This document shows, one piece after another, positions 25,321 to 33,023 of a DNA stretch of 64,000 nucleotides. The position numbers and the translations under genes were made by a program. Location: contig JBGPTW010000004.1 in assembly GCA_041490825.1 (NCBI GenBank), positions 31,902-95,901 on the forward strand, in the 5' to 3' direction. Position 1 is the first letter of the stretch. Each line of letters opens with the position of its first letter. This DNA is from Candidatus Methylomirabilia bacterium. Its GTDB lineage: Bacteria > Methylomirabilota > Methylomirabilia > Rokubacteriales > CSP1-6. Under the pieces are notes generated by a model. That model had not been told where the DNA came from. It ran no database searches and saw nothing but the letters and a program-made list of their open reading frames with translations.

Positions 25321-25700
25321 TTGACTATCTCGACGAGGTCGTCGGCACCGTGAGTGCTCAGATCGACGAGGTCATCGTGCCGTTCGCTGAGGCGGTGGAG
25401 CGCCTGGACACCATCCCTGGCGTGAATAAGCGAACCGCCCAAGCGGTGATCGCAGAGATTGGCGTGTACATGAGCGTGTTTCCCAGCGACCGTCATCTGG
25501 CGAGCTGGGCCGGTCTGTAACAGCCGAGCAGCAGATCATTGTCGACTACGCGGTGTACGCCAAGCGCCCCCGCGCTGTCGGCCACGGGCTCACCGGCCAG
25601 ACCTGCGAAGAGCGCAAGCAGATCGGTCATGACGGGGAAAGGTCGATTTGCTCCTGTGGGCGATCACGATGATCCCGGCTGCTGGAGCCTGGTGGTATCC
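25321..25700 (+). mobile_element. IS110-family transposase C-terminal remnant (Transposase_20 region), frameshifted.
   Basis: Reads DEVVGTVSAQIDEVIVPFAEAVERLDTIPGVNKRTAQAVIAEIGVYMSVFPSDRHLASWAGL then a stop. Weak continuation in another frame. Confidence 0.55.
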
Positions 25701-26263
25701 GGCGGACCAAGGAGATGGCGGAGTTTCTCTCGCAACAGCCGTTTCGCAACGTTGATACGCGATTTCACCGTCCCCAGGGGCACGCCGAGTAGCGCCGCAA
25801 TCTCCTGATACGGTAGTCCCTCGACGCTGTTCAGGACCACGACGATCCGGTAGTGCGGGGGGAGGGCATCGACGGCGTGTCGGACCAGCACTCGGCGCTG
25901 CTCGGCCTCGACACGCGCGGCCGGGTCCGTGCCTTGAGACGCGGCCAGGGCCGCAGAGACGTCGGGCGAGACGACGCGTCGGGTCCGATGACGTAGATGG
26001 GTGAGACAGAGGTTGAGCGTGATCCGGTAGAGCCACGAGTGGAAGGATGCATCGCCGCGGAACCGGGACAATCCCCGGTATACCCGCACGAACGTCTCCT
26101 GGGCGATCTCTTCGGCCACCATCCCGTCGCCGAGGATGCGCAACGCGAGACGGTCGATCCGCTCGTAGTGCTTGTCCACGAGGGCCTCGAAAGCCTTTTC
26201 GTCTCCACCGAGGAACCCTTCGATCAGCGCGCGGTCGTCACCATCCTCGTCAGCGCTTCGCAT
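25664..26263 (-). CDS. ECF (sigma-70 family) RNA polymerase sigma factor.
   Basis: Region 2 (FEALVDKHYERIDRLALRIL, ETFVRVYRGLSRFRG) and region 4 (LPPHYRIVVVLNSVEGLPYQEIAALLGVPLGTVKSRI). Confidence 0.85.
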   Translation of the reverse strand: MRSADEDGDDRALIEGFLGGDEKAFEALVDKHYERIDRLALRILGDGMVAEEIAQETFVRVYRGLSRFRGDASFHSWLYRITLNLCLTHLRHRTRRVVSPDVSAALAASQGTDPAARVEAEQRRVLVRHAVDALPPHYRIVVVLNSVEGLPYQEIAALLGVPLGTVKSRINVAKRLLREKLRHLLGPPDTTRLQQPGSS

Positions 26264-27365
26264 CCACGGGTTCCACGCGTCGGCCAGTCTTGAGCTTTGC
26301 CCGGCCCTGGTCGATCACCAGGTCTTGCGGGTTCAGGCCCGACACCACCTCCACCATGTCGTCGCCCTGGAGCCCTGTCTTGATGGTCTTCATGACGGCC
26401 CTACCGTCCTGCACGACGTACACGACCTCCTCGTTCCCGTGCTGGAGAATCACCGAGACCGGCAGCGCCAGGACACCGCGCTTCCGCGCGCTGACAAATT
26501 TAGCGCTTCCTGTCATACCGACCTTGAGGATCTCTTCGGCCGAGCTCACTCTCAGCTTCACCGAGTACCGCACACGCCCGGTGGGGTCCGGCGTGGACGC
26601 CACGGCGATCTCGCGCGTCGTGGCCTGGAGAACGCGCTGCGGCAGGGCGTCCATCTGCAGCGTCGCAGGTTGGCCGACGCGGACCTTCACGATGTCGGCT
26701 TGGTCGACGTCCGCATGAAACTCCGTCGATCCCAGTTCGGTCAGTTCGGCGACGGCTGTGGTTTGTGGCGTCTGGCCGGGAGCGCGCGCGTCGCTGTCGG
26801 GGACGATGCCTCCGACCTCGACGAATTTCTTCGTGACGATCCCGCTGATCGGCGCGACGATGGACGTCCGCGCCAGTCTCGCCTCGACCTGGGCGATGGC
26901 GGCCTTCCGATCCACGATCTGAGATCGATAGAGGTCCATCTGCCGCTCCGTGCTCTCGACCTCCTGCCGCGCCGCGAAGCCTTTCTCGTACAGGCGGCGC
27001 GTGCGCTGGAGATTGATCTCGGCGTTCGCCAGGTTGCTCTCCGCCAGCGTCAGATTCGCATGGATCTGGTCGACCTGCGCTCGAAGCTCGGACTGGTCGA
27101 GCTTGGCCAGGAGCTGGTCCTTCCGGACGTAGTCGTGCTCCCGGAAGTAGATTGCTGCGAACCGCGCTCCGGGCTCGGTCGTCACACGGACCGTCCGCAA
27201 GGCTTCCACGGCGCCGGTGGCCGTGAACGCTTCCTCGATCGTCGCCCGTGACGGTGTGATGACGGTGACCTTCTCGGGCTCCTCGCGGTAGAAGTACTGA
27301 TAGCCGCCCAAGCCGGCGGCAAGCAGGGCCACGACGATCAGCAAACTCTTGGTCAGACGTTTCAT
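26250..27365 (-). CDS. macA: Efflux transporter periplasmic adaptor (MacA/HlyD family).
   Basis: Signal-anchor, coiled-coil region, and a C-terminal beta-domain. Confidence 0.8.
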   Translation of the reverse strand: MKRLTKSLLIVVALLAAGLGGYQYFYREEPEKVTVITPSRATIEEAFTATGAVEALRTVRVTTEPGARFAAIYFREHDYVRKDQLLAKLDQSELRAQVDQIHANLTLAESNLANAEINLQRTRRLYEKGFAARQEVESTERQMDLYRSQIVDRKAAIAQVEARLARTSIVAPISGIVTKKFVEVGGIVPDSDARAPGQTPQTTAVAELTELGSTEFHADVDQADIVKVRVGQPATLQMDALPQRVLQATTREIAVASTPDPTGRVRYSVKLRVSSAEEILKVGMTGSAKFVSARKRGVLALPVSVILQHGNEEVVYVVQDGRAVMKTIKTGLQGDDMVEVVSGLNPQDLVIDQGRAKLKTGRRVEPVDAKR

Positions 27366-27375
27366 GAGGTGTACG

Positions 27376-28575
27376 TCACTCGTGTCGGAGCGCTTCGATC
27401 GGATCCAGCTTGGCTGCGCGATGCGCCGGGTACACCCCGAAGAACGTCCCCACGGCGATCGAGAAGATGAGTGCCAGACCAGAAGCGAGGGGCGACACGC
27501 TTACCACGAACATGGGATACGCCCTCGCGGCCACGAGCGCGCCCAGGTACGAGAGGCCCAGGCCGAAACAGCCCCCCATGAAGGACAGTAAAATCGCCTC
27601 GCTGAGAAACTGGGCGAGGATGTCAGGCTCGCGGGCTCCCAGAGCTTTCCGAAGGCCGATCTCTCGAGTCCGTTCCGTGACCGACACGATCATGATGTTC
27701 ATGATCCCGATCCCGCCGACCAGAAGCGACACGCCGGCGATACTCCCGAGCATGGCGGTGAAGATCACGCTGATGGACTGCACCGTCTCCAGCGTTTCTC
27801 CCTGGCTCTTCACGGAGAACTGGTCCGCGAGCAGCGTCTGCCCCAAGATGCGGCGCGCTTCGATCATGGCGCCGGGGATGTCGTCCGGCTTGGGCACGCC
27901 GACGAAGATGAACGACAGCGCGGTCGTCCCGAACATCCGCTGCGCTGTTGCGAGCGGGATGAAGACCTGGTTGTCCATGTCGATGTCGAAGAGCTGGCCC
28001 TTCGGCTCCATCACACCGACGACGCGGAATTTCTCTCCCGCGATCACGACCTCCCTGCCGACGACGTCGCCGCCGCTGAAGAGAGCCACTGCGACGGTCT
28101 TCCCGAGCGCCACGACCCGCCGGCCCAGGTCCGCGTCGCTCTTCTTGAGGAACGTCCCCTGGACCGGACGCCAGTTCCGCGCTTCCTGGAAGTTCGGCAG
28201 CGTCCCGCTCACCACCACGCCGGACTTCGCCTCGCGCCCATAGCCGACCGTGGACACGTTGTTCAGCACTGGCGAGACGACGACGTGGAAGGTCGTCGCT
28301 TTCTGAAGCCGTTCCGCGTGCGATACCTGAAGACGGCTGACCTGGGACGTCCCCATGATGACGCCGCCTTTTTGCCGACCGGGCGTGACCATGTAGAGGT
28401 TCGACCCGAGGCCCTCCACCAGCCGTGTCACCTCTCGGCTCGCACCCTCCGAGATCGAGATGAGGAGGATGATCGCGGTCGTCCCGATGGTCACGCCCAG
28501 GGTCGTCAGTGTAGAACGGAGCTTGTTGGCCGTGATGGCCTCGAGGGAAACCCGAAGGTACTCGAACAGCATCAT
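27376..28575 (-). CDS. macB: ABC transporter permease (MacB/FtsX family).
   Basis: MacB_PCD-like N-terminal domain plus an FtsX 4-TM C-terminus (ERTREIGLRKALGA). Confidence 0.85.
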   Translation of the reverse strand: MMLFEYLRVSLEAITANKLRSTLTTLGVTIGTTAIILLISISEGASREVTRLVEGLGSNLYMVTPGRQKGGVIMGTSQVSRLQVSHAERLQKATTFHVVVSPVLNNVSTVGYGREAKSGVVVSGTLPNFQEARNWRPVQGTFLKKSDADLGRRVVALGKTVAVALFSGGDVVGREVVIAGEKFRVVGVMEPKGQLFDIDMDNQVFIPLATAQRMFGTTALSFIFVGVPKPDDIPGAMIEARRILGQTLLADQFSVKSQGETLETVQSISVIFTAMLGSIAGVSLLVGGIGIMNIMIVSVTERTREIGLRKALGAREPDILAQFLSEAILLSFMGGCFGLGLSYLGALVAARAYPMFVVSVSPLASGLALIFSIAVGTFFGVYPAHRAAKLDPIEALRHE

Positions 28576-29318
28576 GGTTGCGCCTCGCCGACGTGCGCAG
28601 TTGCCGACCGGCGCTCGACGACCGCCTCGTCGCGAATCACCACGCCGTCCAGGAGGTGGACGATCCGCTCGGCGTGCTCGGCGAGCTCGCGGCTGTGCGT
28701 CACCATGATGATCGTCTTGCCCTCGCGGTTCAGGCGCTCGATCAACGCCATGACTTCGAGTCCCGAGCGGGAATCGAGGTTACCGGTGGGCTCGTCGGCA
28801 AGGAGGATCTCCGGATCGTTCGCCAGCGCCCGGGCAATGGCGACGCGCTGCTGCTGGCCGCCCGACAGCTGGTTCGGCCGGTGGCGCATCCTGTCCTGTA
28901 ATCCCACGTACCGCAGCAGCTCCGCCGCGCGCTCCCTCCGGCGGTTCCTGGGGAAGCGGCTATAGACGAACGGGAGCATCACGTTGGCCAGCGCCGTCGC
29001 GCGGGGGAGCAAATGGAATGTCTGAAAGACGAAGCCGATCTTGTGGGCGCGCAAAGCCGCCAGGTCAGTGGAGGTCATTCGCGAGGTGTCGATACCCCCG
29101 ATCTCGAGCGTGCCGCTGGAGGGCCGGTCAAGACAGCCGAGAAGGTTGAGCAGGGTCGACTTGCCGCACCCGGACGGGCCCATGAGCGCGATGAACATCC
29201 CGGGATCAACCGTGAGCGACATGCCACGGAGCGCCGGGACTTCGAGCCCGTCGAGCTGGTACGTCTTGACGAGATCCTTCGTCTTTACCATCGGCCCCTG
29301 CCCAGCACGAATCCCCAC
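28572..29318 (-). CDS. ABC transporter ATP-binding protein (MacB/LolD type).
   Basis: Walker A GPSGCGKST, signature LSGGQQQRVAIARAL, Walker B ILLADEPTGNLD. Confidence 0.9.
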   Translation of the reverse strand: MGIRAGQGPMVKTKDLVKTYQLDGLEVPALRGMSLTVDPGMFIALMGPSGCGKSTLLNLLGCLDRPSSGTLEIGGIDTSRMTSTDLAALRAHKIGFVFQTFHLLPRATALANVMLPFVYSRFPRNRRRERAAELLRYVGLQDRMRHRPNQLSGGQQQRVAIARALANDPEILLADEPTGNLDSRSGLEVMALIERLNREGKTIIMVTHSRELAEHAERIVHLLDGVVIRDEAVVERRSATAHVGEAQP

Positions 29319-30352
29319 TTCGTCTGCCCGAGCTCCGTGAGTCGGCCGCGGACCCTGTTGCTGCGGACGAGCCCGCCGTCGTACTCCTCGGGACGCACGT
29401 CTCGGTTGTCACCGAGGATGAAATAGTGGTCGCGTTCAACCGTCGTCGCTGGAACGGTCCAGTTCCCGCCGCCCACCCGGTACGGCTCGTCCAAGGCTCG
29501 TGTGTTCAGCAGCACGTCGCCGTGCCGCACCTGCACCAGGTCGCCAGGCACGCCGAGGATCCTCCCGACGAATCTCACGCGGGTCCGGACGATCGACGAC
29601 CAGAAGCCATCGTCCTGGCCTGCGCGGACGAAGGAGACGATGTCCCCGCGGCGGGGTGGCCGGACGAGATACGTGAGCCTGTCGAACGGCAGAGCCACCA
29701 CGTCCGGTCGTGCGACGAAGGGTGCCACCGTCGGCTCCATCGCCCGCAGGGCGCCGCCTGGCACGAGTCCTCGCTCGACCAGCGCGACGTGCTCACCCCA
29801 GGCGAGACCGCCGTACAGCAGCACGACCGCGAAGACCATCCTGGCCAGCGGCCACCCGGACCGCCCGCTCCACACTCTCACGGCGTGGAGCTTGAGGCGT
29901 AGCCCCCACAGCCAGAGCGTGAATAGAACGGCGATTTCCAGGAGGAGCCAATTGACGTCCAGATCCCGCCGCCAGTCCGTGGGGACGAGCAAGACGGCAG
30001 CAAAGGTCAAGAGCGCCCCGATGATGGCCGGGACCTCGGTATACCCCCAGAGCACGAACAGCTCGGACCACTCCGCGATGGGGTGACCGGTCAATCGCGC
30101 GCCGGAGTACACGAGACCGACGAGCAACGCTGTCCACCCGAGGGCGACGAAGCAGTTCCCGATCAGGCAGGCCGGGGTGCCAGCGAGAGGAGCGAACACG
30201 AGTTCGCTGATGAGAAGGGTCCTGACATAGTAGCCCGTCGCGCCAAGGAGCGCGGACACCGCCAGCGCGCGCCGCACCAGCATCGCCTCGAGGGTGTCTC
30301 GGGGCTCCATCATCAGTCCTCTGACGTCGACCCATGCTGCGATCACCGGCAA
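29285..30352 (-). CDS. Polytopic membrane domain fused to an S26 signal-peptidase-I-like domain whose Ser/Lys catalytic dyad is substituted (putative pseudopeptidase).
   Basis: Box C RRGDIVSF and box E YFILGDNRD are conserved. Box B reads RAMEPTV (Ala at the nucleophile Ser). Box D reads FVGRILGVPGD (Gly at the general-base Lys). Confidence 0.5.
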   Translation of the reverse strand: MPVIAAWVDVRGLMMEPRDTLEAMLVRRALAVSALLGATGYYVRTLLISELVFAPLAGTPACLIGNCFVALGWTALLVGLVYSGARLTGHPIAEWSELFVLWGYTEVPAIIGALLTFAAVLLVPTDWRRDLDVNWLLLEIAVLFTLWLWGLRLKLHAVRVWSGRSGWPLARMVFAVVLLYGGLAWGEHVALVERGLVPGGALRAMEPTVAPFVARPDVVALPFDRLTYLVRPPRRGDIVSFVRAGQDDGFWSSIVRTRVRFVGRILGVPGDLVQVRHGDVLLNTRALDEPYRVGGGNWTVPATTVERDHYFILGDNRDVRPEEYDGGLVRSNRVRGRLTELGQTKWGFVLGRGRW

Positions 30353-30362
30353 CCTCGTGCGA

Positions 30363-30743
30363 TCAGATGATCCCGAGGAAGAGCGCTACTGCCACGACCT
30401 CCTCCTTCAATTCGCCGAACGTGACCGCCTCGGCCAGCGCGAGGAGGACGAGGACTGCCGCGCCGAGCACCGGCAGTCCACTCGCCGGAAAATCCCACCG
30501 GGACCGTCGCGGGCGATGGATCGCGATAACCCGTTCCTTGACCCGAGAACGCGCGTCCAAGATCCTCTCCGGGGTCCTCGCCGGGATTGCCGCAGCATCG
30601 GCGATCACCGTCGCGAGTCGGAACAGCTCTTCCACTTCGGTCCGGCAGCGGCTGCAGACAGTGATGTGCTGCTCGACTCGTGCCCGGGTGCCAGCATCGA
30701 CGAGCCCATCCGTGTAGAGGGTCAGCGACGCCGGATCCATCGC
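30363..30743 (-). CDS. Anti-sigma factor (zf-HC2 type) with a C-terminal TM helix.
   Basis: HITVCSRC = Hx3Cx2C motif. TM segment GLPVLGAAVLVLLALA. Confidence 0.55.
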   Translation of the reverse strand, partial: AMDPASLTLYTDGLVDAGTRARVEQHITVCSRCRTEVEELFRLATVIADAAAIPARTPERILDARSRVKERVIAIHRPRRSRWDFPASGLPVLGAAVLVLLALAEAVTFGELKEEVVAVALFLGII

Positions 30744-30777
30744 GCACTCGAACCCCGGCCGCCGAAATCCGAAGAAC

Positions 30778-32406
30778 CTAGAGATCGACACGATACCTCT
30801 CCAGCAGGGTGCCCGTGGCCCGATCGAACTGGACGAGGATCTTGTTGTAGTCGATGATGACCTTCCACTCTTCCTGCTCGGCCGTGACCAGATCCCGCTG
30901 CGCCTCGATCACCTCGCTCAAGGACGCGAGCCCCTGCTGGAACTTCTCTCGTGTCACGTCCACCCGCAGCTTCGACTGCTCGCGGAACGCCCGAGAGACC
31001 GCGATCACGCTGAACGTCGACTGCATCTGGAGCCCCAGGCGCTCGACCTCGAGCGCGATCGCGTTCTCGACGTTCTTGACGGTGATCTCCGCCCTCTGCT
31101 TTTCCAGCTCAGCCGTCTCGAGCTGGCTCTTGGCGGCGACGTTTCCGAGAGTGAACGTCAGGTTCATACCGACCTTCCATGCGGGGAACTCACCCGAGAA
31201 AAGATTGTCCAGCGAGGTTCCGTAGCCGCCGACAGCGACGCTACTGGCTCCCGGGAAGCTGAGCGTGATCGGCCTGGTGACGGACACCGAGCTGGTGATG
31301 GGCACGGTGACCGTCGTGGTCAGTTGGCCAGGGGCCGCCTCGCCCGCGAGCCCGGTCCACCCGTAGCTTCCGAACAGATTCAGCTGCGGCAGGACCTGGT
31401 TCTTCGCGAAACCAACCGTGAGGTCTTTGTTCCTGAGATCGAGCCGGGCCTGAGGCAGCTCAGGGCGCTGTGCCAGCGCGTTCTTCACGGCCTCTGCGAT
31501 GTCCACGGTCTTCGGCTCGGCGAGGGGCTGATCGAGGGGCACGATCAGCGGATCGCCTCCTACCGCGAAGTTGAGCAGGTCTCGCAGCCGGCGCATCGCG
31601 TCCCGCTGCGTGTTACGGGCGACCAGAAGATCTCCTTCGCGCTGGAGGACCGAAGTCTTCGCCTGGAGCCGCGCGGTCTCCGGCATGAACCCTTCGGTCA
31701 CGAGCTCCTCGGTCCGCTTCGCCAGGTCCCGGGTGAGCTCGAGCGCACGCTCCCTGATCTCGATGTCTTTGAACGCCTTTGCGAGGTCCCAGTAGGTGCT
31801 CTCGGTTTCCGCCAAAATCCCGGCGACCCTGGTCCGGAGCTGGTAGCGTGAGATTCCCACGTTGTTCTCGGCAACCTTGATGCGCCACAAGTTCGCGTCT
31901 GGTCCGAAGCCCTTCAGCAGCGGCTGGGTCAGCGTCAGCGCCAGGCTGGACTGGTACTGCGGGTTGAGGGTCAGGAACTGAGAGTTGCTCTCCAGCTTGC
32001 TGTTCACGAAATCGAGCGACGCCACCGCACCACTGATGAGCCGCGCTCTGATTCCCGTGCTCCACGCGGTCGTGTCGACCTCGGGTGTCGGAGATCCTGC
32101 CAGACCCGATCCCGACAGGCTAATGCTCTGGCTGCGGCTGCCCTCCATCGAGACGGCCGGATGGAACGCTGCGCGCTCGCTCCGGACATCCTGCTCCACG
32201 ATTCTCGAATTGAACCGCTCGACCTTGAGGTCGCGGCTATTCATGAGGGCGAGGTAGGCGACATCATCCCGGGTGAGAGGCAGCGCCTCCCCGGCGTTCG
32301 TGAGTAGCGCCTGGGCGCCGGCCGAAGGCACCCCACTGGACATGAGGATGACCCAGGCTACTGAGGCAAGCCGGAGGCGGGACGTATGAAACGCGCGTGC
32401 CGTCAT
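30778..32406 (-). CDS. TolC-family outer membrane efflux protein.
   Basis: Signal peptide, duplicated OEP repeats, many Leu/Gln/Arg coiled-coil segments. Confidence 0.75.
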   Translation of the reverse strand: MTARAFHTSRLRLASVAWVILMSSGVPSAGAQALLTNAGEALPLTRDDVAYLALMNSRDLKVERFNSRIVEQDVRSERAAFHPAVSMEGSRSQSISLSGSGLAGSPTPEVDTTAWSTGIRARLISGAVASLDFVNSKLESNSQFLTLNPQYQSSLALTLTQPLLKGFGPDANLWRIKVAENNVGISRYQLRTRVAGILAETESTYWDLAKAFKDIEIRERALELTRDLAKRTEELVTEGFMPETARLQAKTSVLQREGDLLVARNTQRDAMRRLRDLLNFAVGGDPLIVPLDQPLAEPKTVDIAEAVKNALAQRPELPQARLDLRNKDLTVGFAKNQVLPQLNLFGSYGWTGLAGEAAPGQLTTTVTVPITSSVSVTRPITLSFPGASSVAVGGYGTSLDNLFSGEFPAWKVGMNLTFTLGNVAAKSQLETAELEKQRAEITVKNVENAIALEVERLGLQMQSTFSVIAVSRAFREQSKLRVDVTREKFQQGLASLSEVIEAQRDLVTAEQEEWKVIIDYNKILVQFDRATGTLLERYRVDL

Positions 32407-32768
32407 GAACGCTCCTCCAATCAAGTCAGTCCTCCGATCACGCCGATTAGACTTCGGACGGGCCGCTAAGGTTTGAATGTCCCTGATGCACCCGCCCCAG
32501 AATGCGGTGGGGCTCGAGGGGCGGTCCCGGCCCGGCCCGCGAGCGGCGCCGGTGTGCGAGGCGAGCGCCCGGCCAACTGAGCTAATTGCCGGTAGCAACG
32601 TTAACGGGTTGCGAGGGGCGCGTCAACCCTGCGGGCGGGCGAGCGGGCGAGCGGCACGAGCGACGCTATCGCCGGGACTGCGACGCCGCGGTCGGCTTCC
32701 GGGTGGGTCTGTTCACGTCTGCGGCGCCGAGACTTGCGCCCCGGCGCCGCAGATCCAAATGCTACGCC

Positions 32769-33023
32769 CTACTTCACTCCGAGCATCGCGTTGGCCTCGT
32801 TGGCGGTCTTCACGGAGTCGGCATGCTTGCCGTCCTTGTGAAGCTGCTCCGCCTCGTCCAGCTTGGCCACCGCCGCCTTCACCTTCGCGTCGTTGGCGTC
32901 CATCTTCGCCGCCGCCTCCCGCCCTTGCTTGATCAGCTTGGGGCAGGTGTTGGCGAACGCCATTCCGCCGCTCAGACTCAGGCTGAGCACTACAGCCATC
33001 AGAGCCATGACGAGCTTCTTCAT
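32769..33023 (-). CDS. Small secreted hypothetical protein with a signal peptide.
   Basis: MKKLVMALMAVVLSLSLSGGMAFA leader, then a Lys/Ala-rich helix. Confidence 0.4.
   Translation of the reverse strand: MKKLVMALMAVVLSLSLSGGMAFANTCPKLIKQGREAAAKMDANDAKVKAAVAKLDEAEQLHKDGKHADSVKTANEANAMLGVK

Follow-up and report, generated by a model that had tools for sequence, protein, structure and literature searches.

A Yip1-like membrane protein carrying a signal peptidase I fold without its catalytic dyad, encoded in an ECF sigma-associated MacAB-TolC-type operon

MacB-type ATP-binding cassette (ABC) pumps take their cargo, including peptides and small proteins, from the periplasm, and a review of this transporter class describes cargo recognition as a matter about which little is known (PMC5985334). 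One of the two closest described systems is the YknWXYZ complex of Bacillus subtilis, in which the Yip1-family membrane protein YknW is co-transcribed with YknX (MacA-like), YknY (ATPase) and YknZ (MacB-like permease). YknW is reported to modulate assembly of the complex, and YknWXYZ to protect against the SDP peptide toxin (PMC4887032; PMC4338810). The yknWXYZ operon is listed in the core sigma-W regulon (PMC3498285). The MacB review terms the role of YknW enigmatic and states that conventional Gram-negative tripartite systems have no protein of the YknW type (PMC5985334). The other system is SipA of Streptococcus pyogenes, a protein with a signal peptidase I (S26) fold in which the nucleophile Ser is replaced by Asp and the general-base Lys by Gly, the peptide cleft is kept, and the replacing residues are reported to play no part in activity (PMC4049620). 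SipA is thus a precedent for an S26 fold that can work by binding alone, without the catalytic dyad. Here we describe a gene that joins features of both systems. It lies in a 64,000-nucleotide stretch of a Candidatus Methylomirabilia bacterium (assembly GCA_041490825.1, contig JBGPTW010000004.1, positions 31,902 to 95,901; hereafter the window, meaning the whole stretch analyzed), and encodes five predicted membrane helices followed by a periplasmic S26 fold in which both catalytic residues are replaced. The gene sits in an operon with extracytoplasmic function (ECF) sigma, anti-sigma and MacAB-TolC-type pump genes.

The open reading frame (ORF) occupies 29285..30352 on the minus strand and specifies 355 amino acids (aa) if translation begins at its TTG codon. 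A GTG at 30346, 5 bases past a GAGG sequence, gives a protein of 353 aa, the length of the public cluster representative, and is by these sequence features the likelier start. The N-terminal portion (29795..30352, minus strand, residues 1-186) is a Yip1-like membrane domain of five helices with its N-terminus predicted to be inside, as delimited by hydropathy, the positive-inside rule and the helices of a structural model. The remainder (29285..29794, minus strand, residues 187-355 and the stop codon) is a signal-peptidase-I-like domain without the catalytic dyad, predicted to be periplasmic and recognized by Pfam S26, Foldseek, VIA-align and hhalign.

Evidence for the S26 fold comes from both sequence and structure comparisons. 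Pfam Peptidase_S26 (PF10502) matches the protein with 45.8 bits against a cut-off of 22.9, over residues 224-319 and profile positions 46-144 of 168, and the NCBIfam signal peptidase I equivalog TIGR02227 is passed by a margin of 1.5 bits (48.5 against a cut-off of 47). An AlphaFold2 model built from an 18-row alignment has a mean predicted local distance difference test score (pLDDT) of 78.6 and contains nine helices, which between them span the five predicted membrane segments, and then a beta-rich domain; its confidence is low at residues 208-215, right after box B (pLDDT < 50), and at residues 248-252. A Foldseek search with this model retrieved SpsB at an E-value of 2.6e-06, with LepB and SipA also matched. 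When the C-terminal domain of the model was compared by VIA-align, SipA ranked at the top (4n31_B, Z 12.3, root-mean-square deviation 2.6 over 126 residues), tied with SpsB at Z 12.0, and Escherichia coli LepB ranked below both at Z 10-11. The family profile also reaches SipA by sequence (E 8.8e-07). An additional conserved helix, ending in ...GKGRW, closes the C-terminus of the family.

Boxes C (RGDIVSF), D and E of signal peptidase I are recognizable in the protein, and the residues that perform catalysis in the enzyme are not. Because the Pfam match is restricted to profile positions 46-144, box B falls outside that alignment and was checked separately, by global alignment of a profile of the family's C-terminal domain to a profile of 63 canonical signal peptidases (the LepB of the same genome and 62 proteins from a profile search that carry both motifs). 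The remnant of box B, RAMEPTV (29726..29746, minus strand, residues 203-209), is paired there as 'LVPGG-ALR-AMEPTV' against 'tIPSG---SMmdTL', so that Ala204 (29741-29743) occupies the position of the nucleophile Ser, Met205 pairs with Met and Thr208 with Thr, and a three-residue insert, 'ALR', precedes them. MAFFT alone shifts the register of box B by three residues, a shift that the profile-profile alignment resolves through the insert, and Ala stands at the Ser position of the window protein in either register. Since the model has low confidence at residues 208-215, the assignment of box B rests on the sequence profiles. In box D (FVGRILGVPGD, 29540..29572, minus strand, residues 261-271) the general-base Lys has given way to Gly263 (29564-29566). 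The same correspondence is obtained in the 63-enzyme profile alignment, in phmmer and family-profile comparisons with the PDB, where 'rfvGRilGvPGD' pairs with SpsB 'dyvKRViGvPGD', and in an hhalign comparison (probability 99) that pairs it with 'dfiKRiiGtPGD' of the genome's own canonical LepB. Box E (YFILGDNRD, 29399..29425, minus strand, residues 310-318) is itself present, and the profile alignment pairs 'GDNRDVRPEEYDGG' of the window protein with 'GDNRDNSQDSRYWG' of the canonical enzymes; directly after the box, GDNRDVRPEEY stands against GDNRDNSQDSR, such that the canonical Ser, Asp and Arg have become Arg, Glu and Tyr324. The genome encodes a separate LepB on another contig, whose dyad is intact (GSMMDT, FIKRIIG) and which matches the S26 profile with 199 bits over positions 2-168. 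By the catalytic features that define the enzyme, therefore, the window protein falls outside the signal peptidase I family, whose fold it shares; with both Ser and Lys lost, its sequence indicates that it almost certainly cannot cut and lacks signal-peptidase activity.

Loss of the dyad is not peculiar to this sequence. A near-length search returned 18 proteins of 286-353 aa with 37-100% identity, the top match being the cluster of the window protein itself; among the others, several bear the name 'signal peptidase I' in their source, and one comes from a Candidatus Rokubacteria record. In an alignment of the window protein with 17 others, position 263 is Gly in 17 of the 18 sequences and Ala in the remaining one, and position 204 is Ala in 15, with Val, Met and Thr once each. 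Throughout the periplasmic domain this alignment holds no invariant Ser, Thr, Cys, His or Lys. Its 31 invariant columns, which persist down to 37% identity, include Met205, Arg264, Gly270, Gly314, Asp315 and Tyr324, and thus residues of the cleft-forming strands (Met205 of box B, Arg264 and Gly270 of box D). An exhaustive profile search gave 27,745 matches at E-values up to 0.001, amounting to the whole S26 superfamily, and from the proteins it yielded, 44 full-length Yip1 plus S26-like proteins were chosen by eye, among them the aligned near-length family members and the window protein. None of the 44 has the box D Lys (Gly in 31, Ala in 7, Val in 5, Leu in 1), so that loss of the dyad is a trait of the family; in the other 123 proteins from the same search, Lys is present in 94 of 122 box D motifs, and 12 proteins have no motif match. 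The Lys-less full-length fusions span dozens of 50%-identity clusters. ESM Atlas clusters with the same two-family make-up have 189, 100 and 87 members, their commonest phyla being Acidobacteriota or Pseudomonadota. The search also brought up a separate group of signal peptidases of 340-430 aa (P0065, P0091, P0102, P0109, P0139, P0142 and P0153) with an intact SM.PT in box B; their N-terminal multi-helix domain differs from that described here and carries a repeated 'KEPWLAV' motif, and the box D Lys is kept in five of the seven and replaced in P0065 (Phe) and P0142 (Gly).

The family is patchily distributed, occurring in 4 of 251 genomes of the window's phylum (its own included) and in 1 of 17 genomes of a second phylum. 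A protein search of a plasmid collection gave 10 matches, all ordinary lepB at 26-55% query coverage, and no full-length relative. Where the gene occurs, it is maintained: each of the 15 genes checked (the window's and those of 14 related loci) has an uninterrupted reading frame, and the ratio of nonsynonymous to synonymous substitution rates (dN/dS; Nei-Gojobori, five interrelated rather than independent pairs, whole-gene dS 0.3-0.45) is 0.13-0.28 for the S26-like domain and 0.14-0.28 for the membrane domain. The dead S26-like domain is under purifying selection and is not decaying.

An initial annotation, made from the letters of the window, had anticipated much of this. It read boxes C, D and E as present, placed Ala at the nucleophile and Gly at the general base, and noted that the second Ser of box E was gone, and each of these readings is borne out by the alignments, the Pfam match and the comparison with the genome's own LepB. 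It also allowed that a proper profile alignment might return Ser and Lys to the catalytic positions, which it does at neither, and a structural superposition on E. coli LepB, which it proposed, gives the Z-scores reported above. Its description of a catalytically dead LepB homologue stands, given the family-wide loss of the dyad, the selection on the domain and the separate intact LepB. The polytopic N-terminal region with five transmembrane segments that it described is likewise found, as detailed below, although its probable Yip1 identity had gone unrecognized.

The five hydrophobic segments lie at residues 29-49, 60-84, 97-123, 134-155 and 167-186. The loops that separate them have family-wide Lys plus Arg contents of 3.5, 0.1, 3.0, 1.1 and 1.4, a positive-inside pattern that predicts an N-terminus inside and a C-terminus outside. 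With that topology, the peptidase-like domain would emerge on the periplasmic face directly past helix 5, as it does in real signal peptidases. Pfam Yip1 (PF04893) matches 13 of 18 family members, with a best E-value of 2.3e-10, and one orthologue passes the profile cut-off (30.4 bits against 28.6). On the basis of this shared Pfam membership of its relatives, we tentatively assign the N-terminal half of the protein to the Yip1 family, that of Bacillus YknW.

The gene is the third in a tightly packed operon on the minus strand, in which the genes overlap or abut and are for that reason presumably co-transcribed. A search of sequencing runs for RNA turned up sediment-metagenome DNA alone. Their order is outer membrane factor (OEP), anti-sigma factor, the Yip1 plus S26-like gene, ABC ATPase, MacB permease, MacA adaptor and ECF sigma factor. 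The first gene encodes a TolC-like outer membrane factor (30778..32406, minus strand; Pfam OEP 1.6e-40, TIGR01844 TolC family) of 542 aa, taken to start at Met65 of a 606-aa ORF with which orthologues align from residue 65 or 77 onward. It is followed by a zf-HC2 anti-sigma factor (30363..30791, minus strand; Pfam zf-HC2 5.8e-07) that has one membrane helix, lacks a sensor domain and ends in a short conserved tail. Downstream of the Yip1 plus S26-like gene lies a MacB-type ABC ATPase (28572..29318, minus strand; Pfam ABC_tran 4.3e-35), whose best NCBIfam match is the N-terminal half of MacB and whose likely ATG, at 29289-29291, overlaps the 3' end of the preceding gene (ATGgTAA). A MacB-type permease with MacB_PCD and FtsX domains (27376..28575, minus strand) and a MacA/HlyD-type periplasmic adaptor (26250..27365, minus strand), both with Pfam and NCBIfam matches, come next, and an ECF sigma factor (25664..26263, minus strand; Sigma70_r2 and r4_2, TIGR02937 at 103.8 bits against a cut-off of 42.9) closes the operon.

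This arrangement recurs. We examined 24 related loci, from 4 species-representative genomes and 20 metagenomes. The ABC ATPase gene is directly downstream in all 19 loci that have downstream DNA (the other five end inside the Yip1 plus S26-like gene), the permease gene is next in the 14 loci that reach that far and the adaptor gene next in 13, and in all 10 loci long enough to show it the ECF sigma gene is the last of the operon. On the upstream side, the zf-HC2 anti-sigma gene is the immediate neighbor in 21 of 22 loci with upstream DNA. The position of the family in the operon is conserved in two phyla. The upstream exception, L013, has no anti-sigma gene before the family match; there a Pkinase ORF (L013:38-844) runs into a match (837-1616) that begins at residue 95, with the ABC gene still downstream, which might reflect rearrangement, a new fusion or chimeric assembly of the contig.

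The operon holds the parts of an ECF sigma/zf-HC2 anti-sigma module, with ECF sigma regions 2 and 4, the HxxxCxxC motif of the anti-sigma factor (H42, C46 and C49 are invariant in 21 sequences of that family) and an ECF-type promoter motif all present. The motif, CAAACC-N17-GTCTAA (32447..32475, minus strand), lies about 40 nt upstream of the OEP start codon and is a putative promoter by motif match. It is the sole match to [CG][AG]AAC[CT]-N16-18-GTC[CT]AA on both strands of the 64-kb window, and it stands at the same place in five orthologous loci (L003, L004, L007, L008 and L009). In a more distant group of loci a related sequence, CGAACyT...GTGTCTTT, is found directly before the anti-sigma gene in nine. 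At L011 (1706-1934) the motif lies 229 nt before the anti-sigma gene with no OEP gene in the interval, which suggests that the closer group has seen a gain or a loss of the TolC-like gene. Taken together, the sequence elements suggest that the module's own ECF sigma factor turns it on. The motif class itself is too generic to define a regulon or to point to a cargo gene, uses that we rejected after a genome-wide scan gave 13 matches. Three of those are RpoE-like sites of the form GGAACTTC-N-GGTCTAA, at about 33420 and 35255 of contig C48 and about 20571 of contig C53. The two on C48 lie at or next to another ECF sigma gene: the first is directly before that gene, and the second precedes a gene for a 467-aa secreted-looking protein. 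The C48 and C53 sites look like parts of a second, autoregulated ECF system.

Close to the operon on its upstream side, at 32769-33023 on the minus strand, an 84-aa ORF without a match in Pfam or NCBIfam begins with a clear signal-peptide-like segment. A perfect GC-rich hairpin comes after it (about 32715-32750), and contig C165 encodes one paralogue with 37% identity. We considered it as a cargo or a part of the system and rejected it, given the hairpin after it and the lack of a counterpart in the 24 related loci.

A dead homologue with conserved loss of the dyad, under purifying selection and in a conserved ECF-sigma/MacAB-type operon, makes a non-proteolytic binding role, as the initial annotation had proposed, a sensible reading of the protein. 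The Yip1-like domain and its link to YknW permit a more specific proposal and make the finding less isolated than it had been held to be. We propose, and give even chances to, the view that the protein is a pseudo-enzyme serving as a fourth, non-catalytic subunit of an ECF-sigma-controlled export pump of the MacAB-TolC type, with a cleft that binds peptide. In such an arrangement the five-helix Yip1-like domain would dock in the inner membrane on the MacB permease, the MacA adaptor or both, as reported for YknW. The dead peptidase domain would then lie at the membrane surface, in the very place that the active site occupies in a real signal peptidase. There the cleft, if retained, could capture an extended stretch of peptide, either from the pump's cargo or from a membrane-attacking peptide, and the captured stretch might be passed to the pump at its periplasmic entrance or retained there.

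Several observations weigh against this proposal. First, the window protein itself gives no Pfam Yip1 match at E-values up to 1, the 13 matches among 18 being those of relatives, so that its kinship with YknW is argued through the Pfam family membership of those relatives; YknW, moreover, has no peptidase-like domain, and its own role is the one called enigmatic (PMC5985334). Second, an intact cleft is assumed, in a model whose confidence is low just past box B, and binding of the protein to MacB, to MacA or to a peptide is inferred. Third, the anti-sigma gene is linked as tightly as the pump genes, and gene order consequently cannot separate a pump subunit from a partner of the anti-sigma factor. 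Fourth, the related loci are not independent, L003, L007 and L009 being 97-99% identical and L015, L016 and L019 95-97% identical. Finally, it is only in the closer group (L003, L004 and L007-L010, plus the window) that the operon includes a TolC-like gene. The initial annotation had placed the gene between an anti-sigma factor and the MacB ATPase in an ECF sigma operon, which is where it lies, and had asked whether the fusion co-occurs with MacAB-TolC in other genomes. For the ABC ATPase and the ECF sigma factor the co-occurrence extends to every locus that reaches them; for the TolC-like gene it is confined to that closer group.

The principal rival explanation makes the protein a sensor or co-regulator of the ECF sigma/anti-sigma pair rather than a subunit of the pump. 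The dead domain would bind the extracytoplasmic tail of the anti-sigma factor, or that factor's helix, which resembles a signal anchor, and so control its regulated proteolysis. The constant upstream neighbor (21 of 22 loci) suits this idea, and so does the anti-sigma factor itself. The protein stops about 20-25 residues past its single membrane helix, and its alignment shows a conserved hydrophobic-acidic tail, TFLGLE.EAF.FF.SYLLP..L; with so short a tail and no sensor domain, it would need a sensor from outside. A real signal peptidase is reported to act as the site-1 protease for RsiV (PMC4183432; PMC6066255), which is a precedent for recognition of an anti-sigma factor by a protein of the peptidase fold. 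The end of the anti-sigma helix, Ala-Leu-Ala in the closer group, resembles a signal peptidase site; in the distant group, however, it reads Ala-Leu-Phe, and the resemblance is lost. The sole characterized bacterial relative of the Yip1 domain, moreover, acts on a pump and not on a sigma factor. A complex prediction for the protein and the anti-sigma factor scored 0.02 against a mark of 0.32, was run without controls and bears neither for nor against binding. We consider this regulatory role unlikely, though better placed than the explanations that follow, and it can coexist with a pump subunit as a form of transporter-coupled signaling.

One way of combining the two is a decoy signal peptidase that couples the load on the pump to gene expression. 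At rest, the dead cleft would hold the helix end and tail of the anti-sigma factor and shield them from site-1 cleavage by the real signal peptidase. Under load, cargo or attacking peptides would fill the cleft, or the MacB permease would pull on the Yip1 domain, and the anti-sigma factor would be released. It would then be cleaved and destroyed, and the freed ECF sigma factor would raise expression of its own pump operon. We regard this model as improbable. If true, it would represent a new way to activate an ECF sigma factor and the first defined role for a Yip1-type accessory protein of a pump.

We think it quite improbable, more so than the decoy, that the protein is a protease or hydrolase with unconventional catalytic residues, for instance one that processes the pump's peptide cargo. 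In favor of such an activity stand the preserved S26 fold and cleft strands, several acidic residues that vary little or not at all (E187, D224, E237, E289 and D315), and, in the distant members P0017 and P0018, a Ser that lies three residues ahead of the canonical position. These acidic residues, however, are common to the canonical enzymes too, in the GDN and EPY motifs, and are structural in E. coli LepB. The domain offers no invariant Ser, Thr, Cys, His or Lys, and the position of the Lys is small or apolar in 44 of 44 relatives. In SipA, too, the residues that replace the dyad are reported to play no part in activity (PMC4049620). Least credible of all is a functionless, decaying lepB duplicate fused by chance to a membrane protein: the loss of both catalytic residues and of the box E support residues and the rarity of the family (4 of 251 genomes of the phylum, its own included) would fit such a relic, but none of the 15 genes has a broken frame, both domains show dN/dS values far below 1, 31 columns are invariant down to 37% identity, the operon position is kept in two phyla, and Lys-less fusions fill dozens of 50%-identity clusters.

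Whichever role applies, the public label 'signal peptidase I' for relatives of this protein is, on sequence grounds, probably wrong, an over-annotation of proteins in which the dyad is missing. Relatives that carry the name include P0002, P0005, P0011 and P0016-P0018. The name predicts an activity that is almost certainly lacking, in them and likewise in dozens of related clusters in other phyla. Three questions also meet in this protein: how MacB-type pumps recognize their cargo, what Yip1-type accessory proteins such as YknW do, and how ECF anti-sigma factors without a sensor domain are switched. A natural fusion of a recognizable, putatively peptide-binding module to a YknW-like anchor suggests a purpose for the anchor and gives an experimental handle on it.

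In the literature searched, outside which most subscription journals fall, no title or abstract described a fusion of Yip1 and S26 domains or a pseudo-peptidase in a MacAB operon. What appears to be new here is the fusion of a Yip1-like domain with a dead S26 domain, its occurrence in a diderm-type operon with a TolC-like gene, and its fixed place beside an anti-sigma factor that has no sensor domain. With LepB and SpsB (MEROPS S26) the protein shares boxes C, D and E, the fold, and a domain placed directly after a membrane helix on the outer face; unlike them it has a five-helix Yip1 anchor in place of one or two helices, a replaced dyad and replaced box E Ser and Arg, and an extra C-terminal helix. 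The operon resembles that of E. coli MacAB-TolC in encoding a MacB-type ATPase, a permease with a periplasmic core domain, a MacA-type adaptor and a TolC-family channel, and differs in that ATPase and permease are separate genes, a putative fourth subunit of pseudo-peptidase type is added, and sigma and anti-sigma genes are included.

The two closest counterparts are SipA and YknW. SipA has a single membrane anchor. It has, like the window protein, an S26 fold without the dyad and the same change of Lys to Gly (PMC4049620), it is the best structural match to the model, and the mode of action proposed here, a partner bound in a retained peptide cleft, is also the one proposed for it. Unlike SipA, the window protein has Ala and not Asp at the nucleophile position. 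SipA belongs to a Gram-positive sortase-pilus cluster and has no Yip1 domain, ABC pump or sigma link, whereas the operon of the window protein holds no sortase or pilin gene, its neighbors being the anti-sigma factor, ABC ATPase, permease, adaptor and sigma factor. YknW, for its part, is a polytopic Yip1-family protein whose operon, under ECF control (sigma-W in that case), also encodes a MacA-like adaptor and a MacB-type ATPase and permease split into separate genes as they are here; unlike the operon of the window, it lacks genes for an outer membrane factor, a sigma factor and an anti-sigma factor. The protein described here thus most resembles SipA in its probable function, as a non-cutting S26 fold, and YknW in its placement, as a Yip1 protein in an ECF-controlled MacB-type operon.

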